The notes under the pieces: generated by a model
The model's database searches: none
What the model was told of the DNA's origin: nothing
The model's input: only the letters and a program-made list of their open reading frames with translations
Part shown: piece after piece, positions 1-58,506 of the stretch
How positions within the stretch are numbered: position 1 is the first letter of the stretch
How the letters are laid out: every line of letters starts with the position of its first letter
Virus record (IMG/VR): IMGVR_UViG_3300028584_001242
Strand: one strand, 5' to 3'
From: a virus
Taxonomy: Duplodnaviria > Heunggongvirae > Uroviricota > Caudoviricetes
DNA length: 64,000 nt
Translations under genes and position numbers: made by a program

Positions 1-1214
1 TTGAGTTTTCACCAACAGGTGAAATAATAACAGCCAATGAGAAGTTTTTAAATTTAATGGGATACTCCCTAAATGAAATAGTAGGGAAAAAACATTCTAT
101 ATTGTGTGACAAACTATATGCAAACAGTGCTGATTACAAAAAGTTTTGGAATAAGTTAGAAGCGGGTGAATATATATCTGATATGTTTAAAAGACTTGAT
201 TCAAAACAAAAAGAAATATGGCTAGAAGCTTCTTACAATCCTATATTTGATAATAACAACAAAGTAGTAAAAGTAATAAAATTTGCAAACGATATTACTA
301 GATATGTAGAGGAAAAAAATGAAGATAAAAGTAAATTAGATGCCCTTAATTCATCTATGGCTGTTATTGAGTTTACACCTGAAGGTATTATTTTAAATGC
401 AAACAATAACTTTTTATCAACAACTGGTTATACATTAAAAGAAATAGTGGGTAAACATCATAATATATTTTGCGAAAAAGCGTATAGTCTTCATTCAGAA
501 TATAAAAGGTTTTGGCAAGATTTAAAAAATGGGCAATTTTTTAATGGTCAATTTAAAAGATTAAATAAACAAGGTAATGATATATGGCTTGAAGCAACTT
601 ATAATCCAATAAGAGACGAAAATGGAAACGTAGTTAAAATTGTTAAATTTGCAAGTGACACCACAAAATTAGTTAACCAATTAGATGCTCAAAAGAAAAG
701 TGCAGAACTTGCATTTTCAATATCAAATAATAATAAAGAAACAGCACAAATCTCAGTAACTACAATAAATGAAACAAATAATGAAATGACAAACATTATA
801 AAATCAGTCAGTGCCACAGAGATTCATTTAAAGTCATTAGAAAAACAATCTGAAAAGATTAAAATGATATTAAATGCTATATATAAGATTGCAACACAAA
901 CTAATTTGTTAGCGTTAAATGCTGCAATTGAAGCCGCCAGAGCTGGAGATGCTGGAAGAGGTTTTGCAGTAGTGGCTAAGGAAGTAAAAGAATTATCAGG
1001 CAATACAAGTGACTTAGTTAAAAGTATTTCTGAAATAATAGAGGAAATTAATAAAGAAACAGAATGTGCGGTTAAACAAATGGAAAGTGTAACTCAGAAC
1101 ACAGAAAGAAGTGTAACATTAATGATTGAAGTCGAGCAGTTAGTGACTGAAATAAGTATCGGCTCTGATAAAATATTATCAGCTATTGCCCAATTATCAA
1201 AAGAGTTAAGTTAA
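1..1214 (+). CDS. methyl-accepting chemotaxis protein with tandem PAS domains (aerotaxis-like), 5'-partial
   Basis: The reading frame is open from nt 3, upstream of the listed ATG at 57. Repeated PAS blocks ([43 protein letters not shown]) precede a C-terminal MCP signalling motif [32 protein letters not shown] terminator follows. Confidence 0.8.
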
Positions 1215-5666: not shown

Positions 5667-5743
5667 TGGTGGGACTTGCAGGACTTGAACCTGCGACCTA
5701 CCGATTATGAGTCGGTTGCTCTAACCAACTGAGCTAAAGTCCC
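5667..5743 (-). tRNA. tRNA with CAU anticodon (Ile2/LAU-type or elongator Met), 77 nt, CCA encoded
   Basis: Full cloverleaf: acceptor GGGACTT/AAGTCCC, D-stem GCTC/GAGC, anticodon stem ACCGA/TCGGT with loop CTCATAA, T-loop TTCAAGT. The anticodon loop and T-stem are close to E. coli ileX as recalled from memory. Confidence 0.85.
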
Positions 5744-6033: not shown

Positions 6034-6118
6034 TGGTGCCCGGTGCCAGACTCGAACTGGCACTCCTTGCGGAAAGGGATTTTAAGTCCCTCGTGTCTAC
6101 CAATTTCACCAACCGGGC
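6034..6118 (-). tRNA. tRNA-Leu(UAA), 85 nt with long variable arm, CCA encoded
   Basis: Acceptor GCCCGGT/ACCGGGC. Anticodon stem AGGGA/TCCCT with loop CTTAAAA. Variable arm TTCCGCAAGGAGTG. T-arm GCCAG-TTCGAGT-CTGGC. Confidence 0.85.
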
Positions 6119-11898: not shown

Positions 11899-11917
11899 CG
11901 TTTGTATCTTAAATTAG

Positions 11918-11990
11918 GAGGACCGACTGGGACTCGAACCCAGAATTCATCCGGTTAAGGACGCTTGTTCCCGTTAAACACCACCGGCCC
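11918..11990 (-). tRNA. tRNA-like gene with a contracted 6-nt anticodon loop (possible non-canonical tRNA or pseudo-tRNA)
   Basis: Acceptor GGGCCGG/TCGGTCC with two G-U pairs, D-arm TGTT-TAACGGG-AACA, canonical T-arm CTGGG-TTCGAGT-CCCAG. The anticodon arm folds only as CGTCC-TTAACC-GGATG. It has its own consensus promoter and terminator. Confidence 0.5.
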
Positions 11991-26815: not shown

Positions 26816-27937
26816 TTACTCGGGAATATCGACTTGTTTACGAGCAAACACCATGATAGCGGCTTGCTTGTAATCAATTTCATTGCCCGAATACTTACTG
26901 ATCAAGACATGCAGCAACAATGGAGCCACTTCTTTGGCTTTACGAGCGTAATCGCCACGTTCCAAACCTTTGTGTTCTTCATAGAAACTTTCAACGGTGC
27001 GAACAAGGTAGTGGTAGCTTTTACGGGCGTAGTCTTCTACTTCATCCAAGCGAGCCAGAATTTCAGCCAGTGGGAAGTTATCGCTGTGCGTCCGGTAATG
27101 ATACAGCGAACGAATTTCGTCCAAAATTTCGTGAAGAGTTGCTTCATAAATAACCTGACGCTCTTTCGACCGATCCTGAATATTGACCACTGCCGACATT
27201 TTCAGGTAAGGGATTGTTTTGACCTTATACATATCAGGGCCAAATTCAACTACATAACCCTCAATTTCAGGGTCATTAACGTTGAGTTCATTGATAGGGA
27301 TACGTTTCACCAAATGGGCCGCAATAACCGGGTATTTGGCAGCAAATTCAGCAGAACGAATATCGACATAAGCACCAGTGCTCATATCACGGGCTTTCAG
27401 GATATGAACAGAATAATCAGTGTATTCAATGAACACGCGGTTCTTGGGCGTGGTCAATTCCAAGTCAACCGAAACACCAGTGCGGGTCAACCGTTCAATA
27501 TCAGCATGCAACTCAGGGCTGATAGATTTTTCAACAAGGTCATAATTGGCAAAAGTTGGCTTCTTTTTGCTCTTGTAGTAAAGCGTATCGTTAACTGGCG
27601 AGATATAGCTGGTCAGCAGGGAACCATCTGGCTTCAAGTAAGCATGATCCGCTTCTTCGGGCTTGATCTTCTGAGTTTCTGGAGTTTCACCGAGCGAGAA
27701 GAATTTCTGCATTGGCAATGCCACCAGCACTGGCTCATCACCGCCCATGTAGAACATGACCCCACGGCAATCTTTAGCACCCGGAAGTTTGAATTCAGAG
27801 TGCTTTGGAATGTCATAGTTGAAGACACGGTAAGTCCCGCCGTCTACTGCTGAGGTTTCATCCCCGTATTTAAAAGACCCCGGATTAGTAACCAACAGGT
27901 TCATCAGTTGGGCATACAGTTCTTGTTGATAAGTCAT
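26816..27937 (-). CDS. RNA ligase, Rnl1 family (T4 gene 63-like), about 373 aa
   Basis: Motif I KPDGSLL. The N-terminal block YRVFNYDIP...CRGVMFYMGGDEP...QKFFSLGE is colinear with T4 Rnl1 as recalled from memory. Confidence 0.8.
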   Translation of the reverse strand: MTYQQELYAQLMNLLVTNPGSFKYGDETSAVDGGTYRVFNYDIPKHSEFKLPGAKDCRGVMFYMGGDEPVLVALPMQKFFSLGETPETQKIKPEEADHAYLKPDGSLLTSYISPVNDTLYYKSKKKPTFANYDLVEKSISPELHADIERLTRTGVSVDLELTTPKNRVFIEYTDYSVHILKARDMSTGAYVDIRSAEFAAKYPVIAAHLVKRIPINELNVNDPEIEGYVVEFGPDMYKVKTIPYLKMSAVVNIQDRSKERQVIYEATLHEILDEIRSLYHYRTHSDNFPLAEILARLDEVEDYARKSYHYLVRTVESFYEEHKGLERGDYARKAKEVAPLLLHVLISKYSGNEIDYKQAAIMVFARKQVDIPE

Positions 27938-27994
27938 GTGAATCTCCACAATTAAATTTGTCTGAATGTATTATATCAAAAACTGATTTTTAAT

Positions 27995-28906: not shown

Positions 28907-30028
28907 TTAAACGGGCGGGGACAAGTCGCCAAGCTCAATTTGTTCCAACGACCAATCCACCAGATGGTTTTTAGAGTAGTGATACAAGTAGTCGTTTTTG
29001 TGACCACGAATCGCCCCCATAACAAAACCAAAGTGTTTATGGCCTTTGAGCTGAATTGCAGCAGCTTTCACGTCAACACCTTTGAATTCAGCAGCAATAT
29101 TATCAACTTCTTTCGACAACGCTTCAATCGAAGCTTTGATAGCGTCATTGATTCGATAAATCTCACTCAAATCAGCCGTTGGCGAATTCAGCGACAAATA
29201 AGCGATGTAATCATCAAGTTTTTCTTCAACCACCAACCGAGCAATATCACGCTCCCGAACAAAGCTAACCGCATGATGGAGGTTCATATACCATTTGGTT
29301 TTGATTTTGATCATGTTACCGTTAACGAATTGAATAACATAGCCTTCAATCCCTTCAACAGTGTTCAGCGACTTCAACAGGGAAGCCAAATCAAATTCTT
29401 CACCAAACAGAGGCTTGTTAACAGGAATATCAAACAACAACGCCAGTTGGTCTTTTTCAGCAGGCATTAAGTAATCGCCTGTGATGTTGTGACGAACATG
29501 AAGCAATGTCATGTTGTCTTCGTCATAACGCAAAACGATACGATGTTTTGGCGAAGTAAATTCAAAAATAGGGGTCAGTTGGGCCTGAGAGCAATATTTA
29601 GTGAACTCGTAGTATTTCTGGTTGCGAGACACAAAGCCTTCTGCCGAAACAGCCACATCCGATTTGAACGACTTCTTGGATTTAGCAAAGAATTCGCCTT
29701 TGAACAGCCCTGTGGTAATCATGGAGCCATCCATTTTATCAAACCCGGCTACCATCGTGCTCCAATCCAAAACGGCTGGCTGGACTTCTGCCCGCTCTGC
29801 CAAGTTAAAGAATTTGTGCAATGGACGCGACAGGATTTTACCATTGTCGTCAAAAGTAATACCGCGAGCTTCTTTTTCAACCGGAGTGTTGAAAGAGTCA
29901 CCGTTGCTGATGTTGTAGCAAACGATATCGGCACCGTTATCCTGTTTATTAACAGAAATATAGGCACGGTCTTTGATATGAGGAATCATATCATCAAGGG
30001 TTTCAATACGCGGGAAGATGCTGGACAT
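28907..30028 (-). CDS. RNA ligase, Rnl1 family, second paralog, 373 aa
   Basis: Motif I KMDGSMI, block ARGITFDDNGKILSRPLHKFFNLAE. Same architecture as 26816..27937. Confidence 0.75.
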   Translation of the reverse strand: MSSIFPRIETLDDMIPHIKDRAYISVNKQDNGADIVCYNISNGDSFNTPVEKEARGITFDDNGKILSRPLHKFFNLAERAEVQPAVLDWSTMVAGFDKMDGSMITTGLFKGEFFAKSKKSFKSDVAVSAEGFVSRNQKYYEFTKYCSQAQLTPIFEFTSPKHRIVLRYDEDNMTLLHVRHNITGDYLMPAEKDQLALLFDIPVNKPLFGEEFDLASLLKSLNTVEGIEGYVIQFVNGNMIKIKTKWYMNLHHAVSFVRERDIARLVVEEKLDDYIAYLSLNSPTADLSEIYRINDAIKASIEALSKEVDNIAAEFKGVDVKAAAIQLKGHKHFGFVMGAIRGHKNDYLYHYSKNHLVDWSLEQIELGDLSPPV

Positions 30029-49597: not shown

Positions 49598-49670
49598 GGC
49601 TGTATGATGGGACTCGAACCCACGACTACCGTTTTTCGACGGAGTTCTGCCGACTGAACTACAAACAGCC
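49598..49670 (-). tRNA. tRNA-like gene with a contracted 6-nt anticodon loop, CCA not encoded
   Basis: D-arm GTTC-AGTCGGCA-GAAC (A14, G18/G19), T-arm GTGGG-TTCGAGT-CCCAT, 6/7-bp acceptor. The anticodon arm folds only as CCGT-CGAAAA-ACGG. It lies immediately downstream of basic-peptide gene 3. Confidence 0.45.
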
Positions 49671-50906: not shown

Positions 50907-51494
50907 CTACTTCACAAAAAAGAACTCTTCATAGATTTTGTATTCGGCAATTGACTCTTTAATATCTTCAAGTCCACGGTGTTTTTCTTGCTTCTTAACC
51001 ATCATGCCCACTTCTGGTTTCACCCGCCATACGATTTCCTTGATGGTGCTTACGTCAATAATACGGTAATGCAAGATGCTGGCAAAGGTTGGCATTTGGG
51101 CCATGATAAAGTTGCGATCCAGCGAAACACTGTTACCACAAATAGGGCTAGAGCCGGGAGCAATGTTGAATTGAGCGATATACGCCAAAATCATTTTTTC
51201 TGCTTCGGTCAACGAAAAAGGCGAAGCCTCAACACGATCCCACAACCCACTGGTGATGTGCATGTTACGAACGTAATCATTAGCCAGTGCTTTGGCTTCT
51301 TCAACGTCATGATGAATAACCACTTCAAAGCCTTCATCAATGATATTGAATTTCGAATCGGTAATGTGAATACCGATTTCAAGGATTTTGTGATACTGAG
51401 CACCCGACAACTTGTCAGCAATATCCAAGCCAGTTGTTTCAAGATCCACCCAAATAAGGAGATCTTTCCGTAGTTCAATAGCCGTCATAGTCAT
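50907..51494 (-). CDS. orn: oligoribonuclease (DEDDh 3'-5' exoribonuclease)
   Basis: Motifs LIWVDLETTGLD, PICGNSVSLDRNF, HYRIIDVSTIKE and H.GLEDIKESI are colinear with E. coli Orn as recalled from memory. AGGAGTGA RBS. Confidence 0.85.
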   Translation of the reverse strand: MTMTAIELRKDLLIWVDLETTGLDIADKLSGAQYHKILEIGIHITDSKFNIIDEGFEVVIHHDVEEAKALANDYVRNMHITSGLWDRVEASPFSLTEAEKMILAYIAQFNIAPGSSPICGNSVSLDRNFIMAQMPTFASILHYRIIDVSTIKEIVWRVKPEVGMMVKKQEKHRGLEDIKESIAEYKIYEEFFFVK

Positions 51495-52644: not shown

Positions 52645-52787
52645 ATCAAAAAACAGATTTTATGTAAAGTTATTTTTTTATTTTTTCCTCAATATTAAAG
52701 AAAATAAATAAATATATATACTATAATACTTGAAATGTTTCGTTAAAAATATTAAGATATGTATAAATAATAAAATAAAAGACTAAT

Positions 52788-53816
52788 ATGAATATAACAA
52801 ACAAGAAGGTAAAAATATTATCAATGGCTTCACTTGCTCTTTTCTGTGGATTATCCTATGCAAAATACGAAGTGATAATGGGTACAGTAGAAGTAAAATT
52901 CAAACAAGTTGAGTGGTTGGAAATTGATCCTAAATCATTAGGTTTAGTTGATTTGCCAAAAGACGATCCATTATATAGATATGGCTGTACAAACTGGGCA
53001 CCATTGCCAGCAGATGAGTTGATCAACACTACGTACACTCAGACAGCAACAAACTGTAAGGGTATGCAATATGAAAGTTATATTAAACAAGAGAAGAATG
53101 CTGTAACAGGTGAAGTTCGTGATAAAGGTGTTGCTTATAATGATGAAGCTTCTGGTAAAGAGATGAGTAATTTGACCAATACACAAGAAGCTGTGGGAAC
53201 ATCTACAAGTTATCTAATGATTGTTAATCCAGTCGCTGGACAAAGTGGTATTTATGATATTACTGATGGTTTAGGTAACAAAGCTAAGGCTTATGTTGAT
53301 ATGAACACTGCAGGAGGTAACTGGATATTGGTAGGTCGTTGGACACAATTACCAGCCGGTTCGGCTAAACGTAACTTCCAAGATGTGGCAATGAAAACGG
53401 GTAAAATACTCAGTTATTCAAACGACACAACAACTTATCCAGTAATACCAAGTGGTTCTGTGAATATAAGTTCTGCGATGATGGTTAAGAGTTCTAACGC
53501 AACATGGACTAGTATGTTTGGAGCATGGCAAACATTCAGCACCTTTAACAAAGGTCAAAACATTGGGGGTGGGTTCACAGTCAATACCCCTATTGGGTCT
53601 AAAAAAATCTATCCAGAAGCCGCTGGTTGGCCGGGACAAAGAGCAACAGACATGACGGATACGTTTGGATTATGGCCTGTATACGGTGCTGGTGGGCCTT
53701 GTGGTGGTGCTGGTATAGCTGGCTCAAATAGAATTTGCCCAAGCTTCTCTTATGCAACCGCTCCACACTTCGATGTGAGCAGTTTGAAAGAAATTTATGT
53801 GAAGTCAAAAAACTAA
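52788..53816 (+). CDS. secreted protein, 342 aa, signal peptide, Gly-rich C-terminus
   Basis: N-terminus MNITNKKVKILSMASLALFCGLSYA. Plus-strand gene after a very AT-rich 140-nt spacer. The motif AGGNWILVGRW faintly recalls fibrinogen-related domains, but this is unsupported. Confidence 0.55.
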   Translation: MNITNKKVKILSMASLALFCGLSYAKYEVIMGTVEVKFKQVEWLEIDPKSLGLVDLPKDDPLYRYGCTNWAPLPADELINTTYTQTATNCKGMQYESYIKQEKNAVTGEVRDKGVAYNDEASGKEMSNLTNTQEAVGTSTSYLMIVNPVAGQSGIYDITDGLGNKAKAYVDMNTAGGNWILVGRWTQLPAGSAKRNFQDVAMKTGKILSYSNDTTTYPVIPSGSVNISSAMMVKSSNATWTSMFGAWQTFSTFNKGQNIGGGFTVNTPIGSKKIYPEAAGWPGQRATDMTDTFGLWPVYGAGGPCGGAGIAGSNRICPSFSYATAPHFDVSSLKEIYVKSKN

Positions 53817-53867: not shown

Positions 53868-54182
53868 TCATTCGCCATCTGTAAACATAAACTCATATTT
53901 AGGATTGATTTTGCTCAATTTAAAACGAGCCTCATTGCGTTTACTGCAAACCCGAGGCATCATTTCTTTGCCTTTGTTTCGGAGTTTGTGACTAAAATTC
54001 AGCCAACGATCTTTCTTTTCAGCCGCTGCAGTAATCATGGCAAGTTCATTAAGAAACGACTCCATTTCTTCGGCGGTAATGCTACCAGAACGATCAATAT
54101 CAATTAAGACACCGGGTTTTGACAACAATGAAGACAATGCCGACTTGTCTTCTAATTCTAAAATTTCGGTCAACTGAGTCAT
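53868..54182 (-). CDS. EF-hand-motif protein, about 104 aa
   Basis: Start MTQLTEIL after a GGAGTG RBS. Canonical 12-residue Ca-binding loop DIDRSGSITAEE. Confidence 0.5.
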   Translation of the reverse strand: MTQLTEILELEDKSALSSLLSKPGVLIDIDRSGSITAEEMESFLNELAMITAAAEKKDRWLNFSHKLRNKGKEMMPRVCSKRNEARFKLSKINPKYEFMFTDGE

Positions 54183-54230
54183 GTTTGAACACTCCACTTT
54201 TTTGAATGTAATGTAGTATAACACAAGCAC

Positions 54231-54480
54231 TGTTTAAGAACAATGATTGTTAAAAATTTTACCCATCGACCTGATTCCGCAGGTGCGTTTAACTGGCGGG
54301 ACGCCAGAGCCATTTGTCTCAACAGAGTTACACAAGGCGTATTGTCCTTGTGACATATCATTGGGATTCGATACCCAACTCCCAACTCCCTTCACAGTAG
54401 TCCTCGGCCAACGAGGTGGAATTTCGCCACCACTTCGAAAAATTACTTCTCAATAAGTTTTCGAAGAAGTGTTGAAATAC
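54231..54480 (-). ncRNA. candidate structured RNA N2 / roughly 300-nt 5' leader of the EF-hand gene (GC-rich island)
   Basis: Starts about 7 nt downstream of the consensus promoter. No credible ORF. Contains hairpin GGUGGCGAAAUUCCACC, tandem GGGAGUUGGGAGUUGGG and AUCGAAUCC. Confidence 0.35.
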
Positions 54481-54486
54481 ATGATG

Positions 54487-54515
54487 AGTATAGCTTAAAA
54501 ATAGACGTATGCAAA
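54487..54515 (-). promoter_or_regulatory. sigma70 promoter TTTGCA-N17-TATACT
   Basis: The -35 box is at plus 54510-54515 and the -10 box at plus 54487-54492. Confidence 0.5.
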
Positions 54516-54549
54516 CAAAAATATGCCCACATACGTCATGAATGAAAGC

Positions 54550-54858
54550 CTAAACGACCAGCAAAGGCTCCTGATCAACACGTTCAAGCATTAATTCATC
54601 ACGGGCACACATTTCAACAATACGGCCATTCTTAAATTTAATAGCAATAGGTTGATCACTGTCAAGACAACCTTGAAGTGATTGTGAAGTTGACAAAAAA
54701 GCCGTCATACCTTCACTGTATTTGATGAAAGCCTCATTGTCGCCATCATCTTCTTTGTTGAAACAAAGGTAGGCTTCTTCAACGATATCACCAAAAACAG
54801 ATTTTGCACGCTGAGTGAGTTCTTCATTTACAAACAAGTGACGAATAATTGCAGCCAT
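54550..54858 (-). CDS. hypothetical protein, about 102 aa
   Basis: Start MAAIIRHLF after an AAGAGGA RBS. A TTGTGG-N17-TATAAT promoter lies about 40 nt upstream. Confidence 0.5.
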   Translation of the reverse strand: MAAIIRHLFVNEELTQRAKSVFGDIVEEAYLCFNKEDDGDNEAFIKYSEGMTAFLSTSQSLQGCLDSDQPIAIKFKNGRIVEMCARDELMLERVDQEPLLVV

Positions 54859-54946
54859 TTCTGTAATCCTCTTGATTTGAGCCATGATTATACCATCAAT
54901 GAAAACCAACCACAATTAAAAACTGTGATTAGTTATTCCATTTCTG

Positions 54947-56188
54947 TCAAACAGCCATCATTTTAAAAACTTCAATCTGTCGAGCGGTTAGCTCATCAGG
55001 GGTAGTAGCAATCGTCTCTGTAATAACTGTTCTGATTTCATTTAAAACAGTATTGTAAACGAAATCAATATTGTTAGTAAAGTATTGAACCAACTTAGTG
55101 TCAACATCGTTTTTATTACCAATATAACTTTTAAATTGATATTGGTAACCATTTTCGCTTTCGCCATCAACACACTGTTCATAGAGAGAGTCAATATTAT
55201 CGTTTGGCTTTAATTGATTACCAAGAGTAAGTAGCAACGATCCACCAAATAACGCAAAATGACAATATTCTGAATTAATTCCAGATGAAGGAGCTAACTC
55301 ATGTTTTCCATAATTTTTGAAGCTGATTGAAACGTCATGTGTCGTTGAACGTAAATCAGCATAAAAAGACATAAGGTTAATAAACTGCTTAAATTTCGTT
55401 TCAGAATCTTTATCTTTCGAAAGCTGCTTGATGATTTTAGGCAAAAGTGCTGTCATGTGATGAGGTATTTTCACATGTTTATGCGGCTCTTTAACCTCTT
55501 TGTTGTGTTCCAAAAGATCATCAACGTGAATAACTAATTCAGCACATGCTTTTGCAATTAAATCGTCTTTATGAATATAGTTAAAATCAAATTTTTCAAA
55601 ATGTTCAACAAGCAAATCCTGAGTTGATTTATTCATGAACGTAATAACTTCTTCTGAATGTTCAGTGTATCCATCAAAACCAAGAATATTTAATACCTTT
55701 GGGTTTACAAGAGACAGTGCTTCATTAAGTTTTTGTTCAAAGTCATCACTCAATGAATAGTCAACACTCACAGTATTCCCGTATAGCCAAGAAACCCGAA
55801 TCTCAGTGGCTGTTAATTTAATTCGAAGAGATGGTAGACAATCACCAAAAATAGTAAAGTCAATATTTTGTTCTTTTTCATAGTTAACTTTTAAACATTT
55901 TTGCTTACGATCATCAGGAATAGCATAAACGCCATAGAGAAATGATCGAATATTCTCTATTTTCATCATGGTTTCAGCAGTTAAATCAAAATGTTTTTCA
56001 AATAAGTTAACATCATCATGTGAAACAAGATATATAAAAGAGTTCTTCAGCGTAGCAAATAAACATTGGTTTTCATCTTCCAAAGAAAGTCCGCTGTGTG
56101 TGTTTGGCGATAGGATCGTCATATTTTTAGAGTCGGCAAACGCCAAAATAGATTTCTGAAGCTCATAAAAACGGTCAGTTAAATTCAA
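54947..56188 (-). CDS. hypothetical protein, 413 aa, TTG start, very AT-rich; tandem paralog of 56215..57441
   Basis: GAGGAA RBS 5 nt before TTG. Shared C-terminal block NIDFVYNTVLNEIRTVI...FKMMAV. Confidence 0.55.
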   Translation of the reverse strand: MNLTDRFYELQKSILAFADSKNMTILSPNTHSGLSLEDENQCLFATLKNSFIYLVSHDDVNLFEKHFDLTAETMMKIENIRSFLYGVYAIPDDRKQKCLKVNYEKEQNIDFTIFGDCLPSLRIKLTATEIRVSWLYGNTVSVDYSLSDDFEQKLNEALSLVNPKVLNILGFDGYTEHSEEVITFMNKSTQDLLVEHFEKFDFNYIHKDDLIAKACAELVIHVDDLLEHNKEVKEPHKHVKIPHHMTALLPKIIKQLSKDKDSETKFKQFINLMSFYADLRSTTHDVSISFKNYGKHELAPSSGINSEYCHFALFGGSLLLTLGNQLKPNDNIDSLYEQCVDGESENGYQYQFKSYIGNKNDVDTKLVQYFTNNIDFVYNTVLNEIRTVITETIATTPDELTARQIEVFKMMAV

Positions 56189-56214
56189 AATAAATTCCTC
56201 GTTATGGTATGTGT

Positions 56215-57441
56215 TTAAAATACAGCCATGTTATAGACTTCAAGATCTTTGAAGCTAATACCATCATCATCATCTTTATGCAACACTTTCTTAACAATAT
56301 TGCAAAGGTCAGTTAAAACTTCATTATAAACGTAATCAATATCATTGGTAACATATTCTTTATACTCATAGGTATCTATATTTTTTAAATAGATAAATGA
56401 AAAAAACTTATTGTCATCATTAGGCTGGACATACACAGCATCATCCTTTGCATTTGGCATGATGTTGTGGCCTATTTTAATGATTAATGTATCACTAATA
56501 TTAAGCCGATAAAAAGATCTGTCACTTGACTGGCCCTTAAAGAAATCTCGTTTTTTCACAGGCATGAAAGATACAGAAAATTTCGTTTTTTTATGGGTGA
56601 TTAAATTATAAAGAACAATAAGACTAATCAACTGATCAATTTTTGATTTAATTCCATCTTTTTTAACAATATGTTGAGCCATTGAAGATATCATGGTTGT
56701 CAAATTGTTTGGAATGTGAAGATTCGAAAAGGTGTCATTATTTTTAGCATTCAAAGCTTTAAGCACAACATTGACATTCAACTTTAAATCAGTGCAAACC
56801 AAATGAACAAGTTCAAGGGGCTGTAAATAGTTAAAAATCGGATTAACACCTTTTTCGAAAAACATTTCATCTGCAGTCTTTTTAATAAAATCAACAACCT
56901 CTGGTGAGTTTTGGTCTGTTGATTTAAATCCATTATAATTCAAAAAAGAGGGGATAACTTGATGGGTAGCCCTATTAACAATACTATCAATATCATCATA
57001 ACAATCAATCAGGTGTGACTCACTTTTAAATTTTTGATCAGCAACAGTCACATAAAGATGGGAGTTGTTGATAACAATCCTAAAACTAGAAAGACCACTA
57101 CCAATAATAGAGAATTCAATCTCTTCTGGTTTTATTTTTACCTTATGCAATGCATGTGGGATTATCATTTCTTCTGGATCAATGTTTGAAATTAATGTCC
57201 GAGTATTTTCAATATTTTGAAGAGTCTCTGGTGAGAGTTTTAGAAAGTCATAGATCACCCTAACATCTTTATGAGCAAGTAAATAAAGACTGACTGGGCC
57301 AATATGCGAATAATTAAATTGATTGTCACTCTCCAACTTAACATTGCGGTTTAAAAATATGTCCAATGGTGCCAAGTTTAAAAGTTCAGCCGACTGTAAG
57401 ACTAGTTTTTTTAAGTCACCTGCGAGTGTATCAATGTCCAA
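56215..57441 (-). CDS. hypothetical protein, about 408 aa, probable TTG start, very AT-rich; tandem paralog
   Basis: No in-frame ATG near the 5' end. AGAGGAT plus 7 nt then TTG (LDIDTLAG...). C-terminus DIDYVYNEVLTDLCNIV...VYNMAVF. Confidence 0.5.
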   Translation of the reverse strand: MDIDTLAGDLKKLVLQSAELLNLAPLDIFLNRNVKLESDNQFNYSHIGPVSLYLLAHKDVRVIYDFLKLSPETLQNIENTRTLISNIDPEEMIIPHALHKVKIKPEEIEFSIIGSGLSSFRIVINNSHLYVTVADQKFKSESHLIDCYDDIDSIVNRATHQVIPSFLNYNGFKSTDQNSPEVVDFIKKTADEMFFEKGVNPIFNYLQPLELVHLVCTDLKLNVNVVLKALNAKNNDTFSNLHIPNNLTTMISSMAQHIVKKDGIKSKIDQLISLIVLYNLITHKKTKFSVSFMPVKKRDFFKGQSSDRSFYRLNISDTLIIKIGHNIMPNAKDDAVYVQPNDDNKFFSFIYLKNIDTYEYKEYVTNDIDYVYNEVLTDLCNIVKKVLHKDDDDGISFKDLEVYNMAVF

Positions 57442-57559
57442 AAAAAAATCCTCTAAATGTTTGGGGCATGATATCACAAATTCAAAATAAATGACAGGTC
57501 TATTTTAATACAGGAACAAAAAAAAGGGCCGAAGCCCTTTTCTATGTAGTTCGCAATTA

Positions 57560-57913
57560 TTACTGAATGCCTGTCCAGCGAATGGTCTTGCCTTCAAGTT
57601 CAAACACATTGCCGCGAGCAAAGTTTTTGGCTGGGCCAAGGCGACCAGCAGACTTCAACAAATCACCAAATGCAAACTTTTTGTTATCACGTTCAATGCA
57701 AATCCACCCGGCACAGCTCCCACTTTTGCTTTTGCCATCGGTATGAATAAGGCGAATGTATTTTTGGCGGAATTCAAACTCAACATTATAACCAAGTGTG
57801 AAACCATCACGGTTGTAATCATTCACCATCATTTGGCGAAGAGTTTCAAGAGCATTGGTCAGATCTTCGGTAGTACGTTCGGTGTTTGCAACAGCTACTT
57901 GTGAAGTGGTCAT
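57560..57913 (-). CDS. hypothetical protein, about 117 aa
   Basis: Start MTTSQVAVA. GGAG RBS. TCGTTGTTATAAT promoter. Confidence 0.5.
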   Translation of the reverse strand: MTTSQVAVANTERTTEDLTNALETLRQMMVNDYNRDGFTLGYNVEFEFRQKYIRLIHTDGKSKSGSCAGWICIERDNKKFAFGDLLKSAGRLGPAKNFARGNVFELEGKTIRWTGIQ

Positions 57914-58111
57914 CTTGTGAAGCTCCGTCTCTGTTTGTGTGGGGTAATTATAACAACGAAACACCTCAATGACAACACTTTATTCAATCATTTTTAAGTT
58001 TTTTCAAAAAACGCTACGAATAAATATTGATCCTTAATTATCTCACAAAATTCAAAGCTTGTAAATCCACCAGAATAGGGTTTTAGTTATTTTTGATGAA
58101 AAAAGAGTAAT

Positions 58112-58144
58112 AAAAAACCCTAATGGCTCTCACCAAAAGGGTTT
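58112..58144. terminator. bidirectional terminator AAACCC-N18-GGGTTT with flanking A and T runs
   Basis: It ends candidate RNA N3 on the minus strand. Confidence 0.5.
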
Positions 58145-58433
58145 ATGTTTTTTTAGAATTAATGAAATTGCATTAAAGAAAACTTCATTGAAGGATTTCT
58201 CTAATACAATCTGATCAAGTCAGATTGCAGAGCAGTCGCTACCTAACTCAAGTGCCGAAGTCTTGCGATCCTTTCTGCTAAGAAAGTTAACGGCGTTTTC
58301 CCCTTGCAGTCCCCAATGGTCGAGGCCAATCCCATCAGAATGAGTGTCCGCACAAAGACCTCCCAATGCTCCCAATGTCAAAAATATGACAACAGTTGTG
58401 CCTTACGAGAACATAAATGGATCTCGTATCGGA
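58145..58433 (-). ncRNA. candidate small RNA N3 (about 320 nt including terminator, GC-rich island)
   Basis: Between the perfect consensus promoter and the terminator. The longest ORF has no SD. Contains GCAUCCGAUAC, CAUUGGGAGCAUUGGGAGG, and hairpin CAAUCUGA-ucaag-UCAGAUUG. Confidence 0.45.
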
Positions 58434-58440
58434 TGCCACA

Positions 58441-58469
58441 ATTATACGACAAAATGAGAAAGGTGTCAA
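58441..58469 (-). promoter_or_regulatory. perfect consensus sigma70 promoter TTGACA-N17-TATAAT
   Basis: The -35 box is at plus 58464-58469 and the -10 box at plus 58441-58446. Confidence 0.65.
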
Positions 58470-58482
58470 AGCTTTTCAACAA

Positions 58483-58506
58483 AAAAGGAGCCGAAGCTCC
58501 TTGATA
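58483..58506 (-). terminator. terminator GGAGC-UUCG-GCUCC plus U6 (minus strand)
   Basis: It ends gene 58528..59016. Confidence 0.6.

Follow-up and report, generated by a model that had tools for sequence, protein, structure and literature searches.

A rare, apparently phage-restricted protein family in a polymorphic cassette slot of an uncultured, putatively T4-like phage

The window analysed here is a stretch of 64,000 nucleotides from an uncultured virus of the Caudoviricetes (IMG/VR record IMGVR_UViG_3300028584_001242), and it carries two adjacent genes of about 410 codons, A and B, which lie in tandem and start at TTG codons (Table 1). Comparison of their sequences identifies A and B as diverged paralogs from a protein family that is rare, restricted to phages and new in sequence, and, judged from predicted models, apparently also new in fold. 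The two genes sit in what appears to be a hyperplastic early-gene region of a large, T4-like phage or phage-like replicon. Moreover, alignment with syntenic loci from other metagenomes, which are referred to below by handles such as L001, shows the slot that holds the two genes to be a polymorphic, hypervariable cassette with a variable number of copies and sharp, recombination-like boundaries.

BLASTP aligns A with B over their whole length, at 26% identity across 412 amino acids (E = 1e-34). The paralogy proposed in an earlier note, which was made from the letters of the sequence, is real and extends beyond the conserved blocks quoted there; these blocks, TN[DN]ID[FY]VYN..L and the C-terminal [LI]EV[FY].M, count among the three segments that are best conserved in the family. 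Purifying selection acts on both genes, which are truly coding: the ratio of nonsynonymous to synonymous divergence (dN/dS) relative to L007 is 0.14 in A and 0.32 in B.

Neither gene has an in-frame ATG near its 5' end, the first being found at M23 in B and at about residue 93 in A, and each TTG follows a Shine-Dalgarno sequence, as the earlier note had observed. These sequences and the TTG codons are identical in L005-L008, which are four independent assemblies, and more distant alleles begin at the same codon with the same spacing. The homologous start is ATG in the first copy of L010 and in the B-type copies of L001 and L010, GTG in L015, and an in-frame TTG in the first copy of L001; the Shine-Dalgarno sequence of gene A and its spacing are kept in L001, L010 and L015 ahead of TTG, ATG and GTG, respectively. 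No allele starts further upstream, and the upstream ATG that would have marked the TTG starts as sequencing errors is not seen in any of these loci. Because the same TTG recurs in L005-L008 and the distant alleles start at the same codon, the positions of the two starts are confirmed at the level of sequence and the TTG codons are no sequencing errors; it is the identity of the start codon that drifts among alleles. The frame of gene A is open as far as a GTG at 57477 (ORF 56215-57477, ORF denoting an open reading frame), but this codon is disfavoured as a start because it has no Shine-Dalgarno sequence, lies within the promoter spacer directly upstream of the -10 hexamer, and corresponds to a frame that is shut by a stop codon in the L001 ortholog of A (54% identical). 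Orthologs of gene A are mostly called at 408 amino acids. Since a Shine-Dalgarno motif precedes 23 of the 41 ATG-start ORFs of the window, compared to a background of 5%, the translation signals of A and B are typical for this genome. We also observe an exact 15-nt repeat, ATTTATTTTGAATTT in the minus-strand sense, at 56181-56195 (the start codon of B) and at 57478-57492 (the promoter spacer upstream of A), the two copies being 1297 nt apart. The chance expectation for an exact 15-mer repeat within 4.5 kb is roughly 0.05, and this repeat may be the relic of a duplication junction.

The nucleotide composition of the two genes is lower in GC than that of their surroundings, as had been noted, although the value of about 28% given for it does not hold. 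GC is 32.6% in B and 31.3% in A (0.26 and 0.28, respectively, at third codon positions, GC3), while the means for the 76 ORFs of the window are 39.4% (standard deviation 4.4) and 0.38. As a result, A and B lie 1.5-1.8 standard deviations under the window mean and are both within the seven lowest ORFs. Every family member has a GC content 4-10 points under that of its own locus, so low GC is a trait of the family and not a sign of recent transfer into this genome. The most distant members are found in phages of 30-33% GC, and the acquisition from an AT-richer donor suggested in the earlier note is plausible.

The syntenic loci retain the same neighbour genes, and the proteins encoded by these neighbours are 80-98% identical to those of L001 and L010. 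Amino-acid identity is 54% (L001) and 31% (L010) for A, and 46% (L001) and 43% (L010) for B, making the A/B slot, on these alignments, the most divergent locus of an otherwise well-conserved neighbourhood. When nucleotide identity to L001 and L010 is followed in 200-nt windows, it amounts to 90-96% in both flanks and to 48-72% from about 57600 to 55000, the segment comprising A and B. The reverse pattern is seen with L007, for which identity is 95-100% at 59200-55000 and 65-88% elsewhere, suggesting that the history of the A/B alleles differs from that of their flanks. The pattern with L007 indicates a very recent import, presumably by recombination, of orf174, orf134, A and B. The segment 59200-58400 is 100% identical to L007, a relative from a sewage metagenome.

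Both edges of the variable block can be placed with some precision. High-scoring segment pairs in BLAST comparisons with L001, L005 and L007 break at 57518-57519, which is the foot of a stem-loop upstream of A. At the downstream edge, near position 55000, where the conserved 3' end of B lies, identity to L001 and L010 climbs from 55-60% to 83-84%. Recombination may have taken place in a stretch of 49 nt in this 3' region, which recurs in A with 78% nucleotide identity between the two copies (direct repeat D1 in Table 1). At least six deep types are resolved when all members are placed in a tree, and the slot holds one, two or three copies: types A and B in the window, L007 and L001; types A and C in L016 and L017; types D, C and B, three copies in all, in L010 and L011; and a single E-type gene in L015. 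The slot is never empty among the syntenic loci seen, and the 64-kb window contains no further copy of the family.

The signals upstream of A are those expected of a unit that would be read early. A terminator stem-loop with a T run is followed by a sigma-70-like promoter with a TG-extended -10 hexamer, and then by the Shine-Dalgarno sequence and TTG of gene A, so that terminator and promoter form a composite resembling the promoter-early stem-loop (PeSL) elements. Such composites are sites of cassette shuffling in T4-type phages (Comeau 2014, PMC4122927). The extended -10 followed by CCAAACATTT is kept in L001 and L010. Downstream of B is a small ORF that has no family match; since there is no terminator between the two, it is probably co-transcribed with A and B, and a terminator-like hairpin closes what is apparently one transcription unit of A, B and the small ORF behind the PeSL-like element.

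Similar signals recur across the window with a marked strand bias. Sites matching the sigma-70 consensus at 10 or more of 12 positions number 57 on the coding strand and 10 on the other strand, and those matching at 11 or more number 16 and 1. Terminator-like hairpins are found 34 times on the coding strand and 23 times on the other strand, and a promoter-like site (at least 9 of 12 positions) follows within 60 nt for 14 of the 34 but for none of the 23. Many of the coding-strand hairpins have a UUCG-type tetraloop between A and T runs. The T4 late-promoter motif TATAAATA does not precede A or B, its five occurrences in the window being located elsewhere. Taken together with the gene content described below, the window appears to be organised like the early, hyperplastic regions known from T4-type phages.

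One of the five late-promoter motifs belongs to an ORF on the opposite strand (52762-53816, plus strand, 342 amino acids), where TATAAATA starts 26 nt before the ATG (52788). Because the motif precedes the ATG, this ORF may be expressed late despite its place within the early region. Its N-terminus, MNITNKKVKILSMASLALFCGLSYA, resembles a signal peptide, the protein is 91-92% conserved in relatives, and it has no family match.

Relatives of the A and B proteins are few. Word-indexed searches return seven relatives of B and 14 of A, all of them unnamed and without Pfam domains; the exact protein encoded by gene A of the window has no entry of its own. When 1.84 billion representatives are searched exhaustively with a profile, 18 clusters are recovered, of which 16 are full-length (376-429 amino acids) and two are fragments. 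No significant or recurrent match to Pfam, PHROGs or PADLOC is obtained for A, B or any of the 22 family members; for PADLOC there is nothing at E < 0.001, and the three single-member matches have E >= 0.0085. A sequence profile search of the PDB gave one match, at E = 0.46, which we rejected. No relative was found in one genome per species for 185,579 bacterial and archaeal GTDB species, and a scan of IMG/VR with the family profile found nothing; the wider family alignment is too divergent for scanning. We found no paper on this protein family in the literature.

Across the 22 members, the invariant or near-invariant residues (L272, Y378, M410, H57, G170, F184, Y204, Q268, L269, Y276, G323, L382 and I389) are mostly hydrophobic or glycine, plus one histidine and one glutamine. 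They look like a structural core and not a catalytic constellation, in agreement with the earlier note, which had recognised no catalytic motif. The three best-conserved segments, QFINLM (268-273), NNIDFVYN (372-379) and QIEVFK (404-409), are all located in helices of the predicted C-terminal domain. In contrast, the most variable segments (26-35, 88-95, 132-146, 224-237, 328-343 and 359-366 in B numbering) correspond to loops and beta-hairpins of the model.

AlphaFold2 (AF2) models built from a 17-sequence alignment have a common architecture, with mean predicted local distance difference test (pLDDT) scores of 80.9 for B and 79.8 for A, and a predicted template modelling score (pTM) of 0.72 for both. 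This architecture consists of an N-terminal alpha+beta part (residues ~1-170), a helical middle (~180-256) and a C-terminal alpha+beta part (~262-413). We found no structural relatives of the models among solved and viral-predicted structures, and the solved anti-defence proteins in the PDB show no fold similarity to them. An internal duplication was also considered, and was rejected because hhalign comparisons among the three parts give no signal (probability < 1%). Both proteins are predicted to be soluble and mildly acidic (pI ~5), with no transmembrane segment. With no described relative and no recognisable fold, the family is new as a protein family. In the most distant carriers, L009 and L012, a single copy stands tail-to-tail (convergent) with a gene for a phage HSP70/DnaK-like protein of 630-641 amino acids, and L009 has an ADP-ribosylglycohydrolase gene nearby.

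Table 1. Positions of the A/B genes and associated features (window coordinates unless a locus is named)
Feature	Position	Strand	Remarks
Gene A (first array copy, type A)	56215-57441	minus	408 aa, TTG start; from ORF and sequence
Gene B (second array copy, type B)	54947-56188	minus	413 aa, TTG start; from ORF and sequence
Shine-Dalgarno of gene A, AGAGGA	57449-57454	minus	7-nt T run, then TTG at 57441
Shine-Dalgarno of gene B, GAGGAA	56195-56200	minus	6-nt spacer, then TTG at 56188; within the 26-nt A-B spacer
Sigma-70-like putative early promoter of the array	57468-57497	minus	CTGTCA, 18-nt spacer, TATCAT, TG extended -10; consensus scan
Terminator stem-loop AAAAGGGC-TTCG-GCCCTTTT and T run	57515-57541 (stem-loop 57541-57522)	minus	Upstream edge of variable block
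Conserved 3' block of B	55038-55086	minus	Encodes TNNIDFVYN..L; direct repeat D1
Same conserved 3' block in A	56309-56357	minus	Direct repeat D1
Small downstream ORF	54550-54915	minus	~102-121 aa, start uncertain; from ORF list; present in all syntenic loci
Terminator-like hairpin closing the apparent A-B-small ORF unit	54504-54537	minus	
Example hairpin/PeSL-like sites	58502-58441, 57541-57468, 46703-46630, 35889-35822, 4895-4845	minus	
Single family copy with HSP70/DnaK-like gene	L009 6254-9441; L012 2368-5553		

The remainder of the window consists of dense, mostly minus-strand ORFs that are mostly anonymous, and the 62 other ORFs scanned contain few Pfam domains. CinA, AAA_33, Phage_T4_Y00F and RNase_T domains are found beside A and B, and two T4 Rnl1-type RNA ligases, NUDIX, GNAT, Band 7, DUF2807 and a PAS-containing chemoreceptor elsewhere. 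The better of the two ligases is 42% identical to a protein of the Ralstonia jumbo phage RsoM2USA, which is its best cultured match, and the Y00F-like protein shares 31% identity with one from a Pseudomonas phage. A and B have no match in 50,697 phage records by megablast or tblastn, and the phage appears to belong to an uncultured lineage without a close cultured relative.

Several features of this DNA are recorded here in their own right. The Rnl1-type ligase genes are paralogs located about 1 kb apart (26816-27949 and 28907-30028, both on the minus strand), with E = 2.8e-8 and 7.3e-27 to PF09511, respectively. The gene for the PAS-domain methyl-accepting chemotaxis protein (57-1214, plus strand, 385 amino acids) lies on the minority strand and is the most AT-skewed large ORF (GC 28.9%, GC3 0.18); a scan of GTDB genomes for close relatives, as a possible pointer to the host, returned none. 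ARAGORN reports tRNA-like genes at 11917-11990 and 49598-49668 (both minus strand) with an undetermined two-base 'aa' anticodon, the second of which, at 42.9 bits, also exceeds the gathering score of the Rfam tRNA model, in addition to a normal tRNA-Met (5667-5743) and tRNA-Leu(UAA) (6034-6118). The RNase_T/oligoribonuclease-like gene is intact in the window (50907-51494, 195 amino acids), and its ortholog is broken into ORFs of 98 and 95 amino acids in L010 (15252-15839) and L011.

The reading that we favour, tentatively and at rather less than an even chance, is that A and B are early-expressed, non-enzymatic binding proteins that take part in the conflict between phage and host, the paralogs and alleles being variants that differ in specificity. 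On this reading the two proteins would be made early by the host RNA polymerase, and would be soluble, mildly acidic, three-part molecules without enzymatic activity. Their mode of action might well be to bind, in stoichiometric amounts, a partner that is itself polymorphic and would most likely belong to host defence or be another factor of the host, a step in which we place the same limited confidence. Specificity would reside in the variable loops, with the conserved C-terminal-domain helices as the scaffold. Carrying two or three divergent copies would then widen the range of partner variants covered, and recombination, both from one PeSL element to another and within the conserved 3' blocks that the copies have in common, would lead to the exchange, duplication and loss of cassettes. 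The arms-race role put forward in the earlier note, whether as anti-defence protein, decoy or target, fits the divergence of the genes, the presence of at least six types in 1-3 copies and the setting rich in putative early promoters.

Several observations weigh against this reading. The promoter upstream of A matches the consensus at only 9 of 12 positions, and promoter-like sites are not enriched in 54000-58500, where 17 are found and 15.6 are expected from shuffled sequences. Sliding-window dN/dS between close alleles reveals no window in which dN exceeds dS, which is the pattern of purifying and not of positive selection. Between B and an allele 92% identical to it, the differences are concentrated at residues 216-251, but dS is elevated in this segment too, so the concentration looks like a patch of intragenic recombination and not like adaptive point change. 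No family homolog with a known role was found in sequence, profile or structure searches. The T4-like affiliation itself is drawn from accessory markers (the two Rnl1-type ligases, Y00F and the TATAAATA motif before an opposite-strand ORF), there being no T4 core gene within the 64-kb window. Finally, high divergence and variable copy number are also seen in dispensable, weakly constrained ORFans.

This last point leads to an alternative that we consider unlikely but far from negligible, namely that A and B are filler ORFans with a minor or redundant intracellular role, diverging under relaxed selection in a recombination-prone region without any arms race. The TTG and GTG starts, which suggest low expression, the copy number of 1-3 and the very narrow distribution of the family would all be expected of such genes, and the many PeSL-like elements make the whole region plastic. 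Relaxed selection is difficult to reconcile with dN/dS values of 0.14-0.32 in genes that keep their full length (376-429 amino acids), which argue for real constraint, or with a slot that is occupied in every syntenic locus seen. Moreover, the divergence is confined to A and B even though equally anonymous ORFan neighbours are 80-98% identical. We regard it as distinctly less probable that the locus is a phage-encoded exclusion or defence module directed against competing phages or mobile elements, acting like an abortive infection (Abi) or superinfection exclusion system. Polymorphic, cassette-like loci with variable copy number are typical of defence islands too, and expression looks early, but no PADLOC model matches at E < 0.001, signatures of nucleases, NTPases, SIR2/TIR domains or membrane proteins are absent, and no relatives were found in bacterial genomes or prophages of the 185,579 species. 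The context is not that of a prophage, a point over which the megabase contigs described below leave a small doubt. The earlier note's suggestion of an Abi-type protein in a prophage is not borne out for the same reasons, given the T4-like hyperplastic early context, the PADLOC result and the lack of a relative in the 185,579 species.

T-even internal proteins have an N-terminal capsid-targeting sequence that ends in an L/I-x-E cleavage site. That A and B are likewise packaged in the virion and injected, neutralising host restriction in the manner of the T4 internal-protein (IP) locus, seems improbable to us. They are acidic and soluble, and the T-even IP locus is a classic polymorphic cassette locus linked to host range (PMC4122927). 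Their N-termini, in contrast, are variable and carry no L/I-x-E targeting or cleavage motif, the genes stand behind a sigma-70-type promoter among early-type units, and TATAAATA precedes neither of them although it is present before the opposite-strand ORF at 52788. We would be most surprised if the proteins proved to be host-takeover factors or accessory factors of replication or transcription whose C-terminal segment, [QDH][LI][ED][VLI][FY].M, which lies three residues from the C-terminus, docks on a ring- or clamp-like partner. The segment presumably resembles clamp-binding motifs of the QL[SD]LF type, it is among the three best conserved, its invariant methionine is at a fixed distance from the end, and AF2 confidence is low there (pLDDT 47-60). 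It is also predicted to be helical and amphipathic, however, and its conservation co-varies with that of the other two C-terminal-domain helices, so that it may simply be part of the fold; one would also hardly expect a core takeover factor to diverge more than any of its neighbours.

A stronger form of the favoured reading would place A and B in a hitherto unrecognised family, novel in structure, whose members counter host defence (or capture host factors) and whose cassettes are shuffled by PeSL-type recombination among related giant phages, each type being matched to a different variant of a host immune component. Separately from this, the replicon could itself be extraordinary, a phage-like genome of 1.3-1.9 Mb. 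We consider these ideas doubtful, giving them perhaps one chance among several. The genome size comes from three independent assemblies in which fully syntenic orthologous loci are separated from the closer end of the contig by 0.26-1.0 Mb: L002 (JGI Ga0370506_000001, 1,917,244 bp), L017 (JGI Ga0308158_10000001, 1,859,102 bp) and L016 (ENA ERZ27247443 k141_1011963, a MEGAHIT-style name, 1,281,823 bp). In other assemblies the locus is on contigs of 163-320 kb. On the 1.9-Mb contig of L002 the gene is listed at one place, with no similar places beyond; because it occurs there once, this contig is not a simple concatemer. The view taken of the megabase contigs covers only the 10-kb flanks of these loci, and the contigs could be a giant phage-like replicon, an integration in a small bacterial chromosome, or a chimeric assembly. 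No phage larger than 1 Mb is described in the literature searched.

Taken alone, A and B are another uncharacterised ORFan pair in a phage hyperplastic region, as specialists would expect, and the shuffling of ORFan cassettes in such regions of T4-type phages is already known; it is the family itself that is new. The occurrence of discrete, deep types in 1-3 copies, with sharp boundaries in otherwise near-identical genomes, marks the family as a candidate phage-host conflict factor. In addition, shuffling of the PeSL type, known in cultured T4-type phages, would be extended to uncultured, very large phages of sewage and wastewater. These findings overturn nothing, but they make A and B an experimentally tractable candidate.

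Jumbo phages possess lineage-specific, multi-copy, fast-diverging paralog families of unknown function, and the family described here is likewise multi-copy, fast-diverging and confined to one lineage of large phages. Its copies differ from such expansions in being limited to one syntenic slot, where they act as alleles or cassettes instead of being dispersed. A second parallel is provided by phage anti-defence proteins such as Ocr, Arn, Gad1, Tad1/2 and Acb1/2, which are encoded in early or accessory regions. A and B resemble these proteins in their early-type location, in lacking a housekeeping function, in their fast turnover between related phages and in probably acting by non-enzymatic binding, but comparisons by sequence, profile and fold match them to no solved structure. 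The T-even IP locus (Repoila 1994, as cited in PMC4122927), which has been proposed to adjust host range or to counter host restriction (PMC4122927), offers the likeness of a single slot filled by alternative, divergent cassettes in close phages. IP genes, however, are late and small and encode packaged proteins with an N-terminal capsid-targeting sequence, whereas A and B encode about 410 amino acids, have neither a targeting signal nor a late promoter, and look early.

Finally, the arrangement at the slot can be compared with the PeSL-flanked ORFan cassettes in hyperplastic regions of T4-type phages (Arbiol 2010, PMC2839356; Comeau 2014, PMC4122927), which have the same order of terminator, sigma-70-like promoter, Shine-Dalgarno sequence and start codon. 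The PeSL stem consensus of phages nt-1 and KVP40 is A3-4G3-loop-C3T3-4 (PMC4122927), and the AAAAGGGC-loop-GCCCTTTT stem observed here fits it. As in those phages, the elements are frequent (14 on the coding strand) and strand-specific, the one upstream of A sits where identity to relatives collapses, and the genes that they head are ORFans subject to replacement, gain or loss from one close relative to the next. Three differences are evident: the phage here has not been cultured and lacks close relatives in culture; downstream, the cassette ends at a conserved 3' gene end and not at a second PeSL; and the cassette consists of homologous genes for 400-amino-acid proteins in 1-3 tandem copies, whereas PeSL cassettes consist of unrelated small ORFs. 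Recombination of the PeSL type may likewise have operated at the A/B slot.

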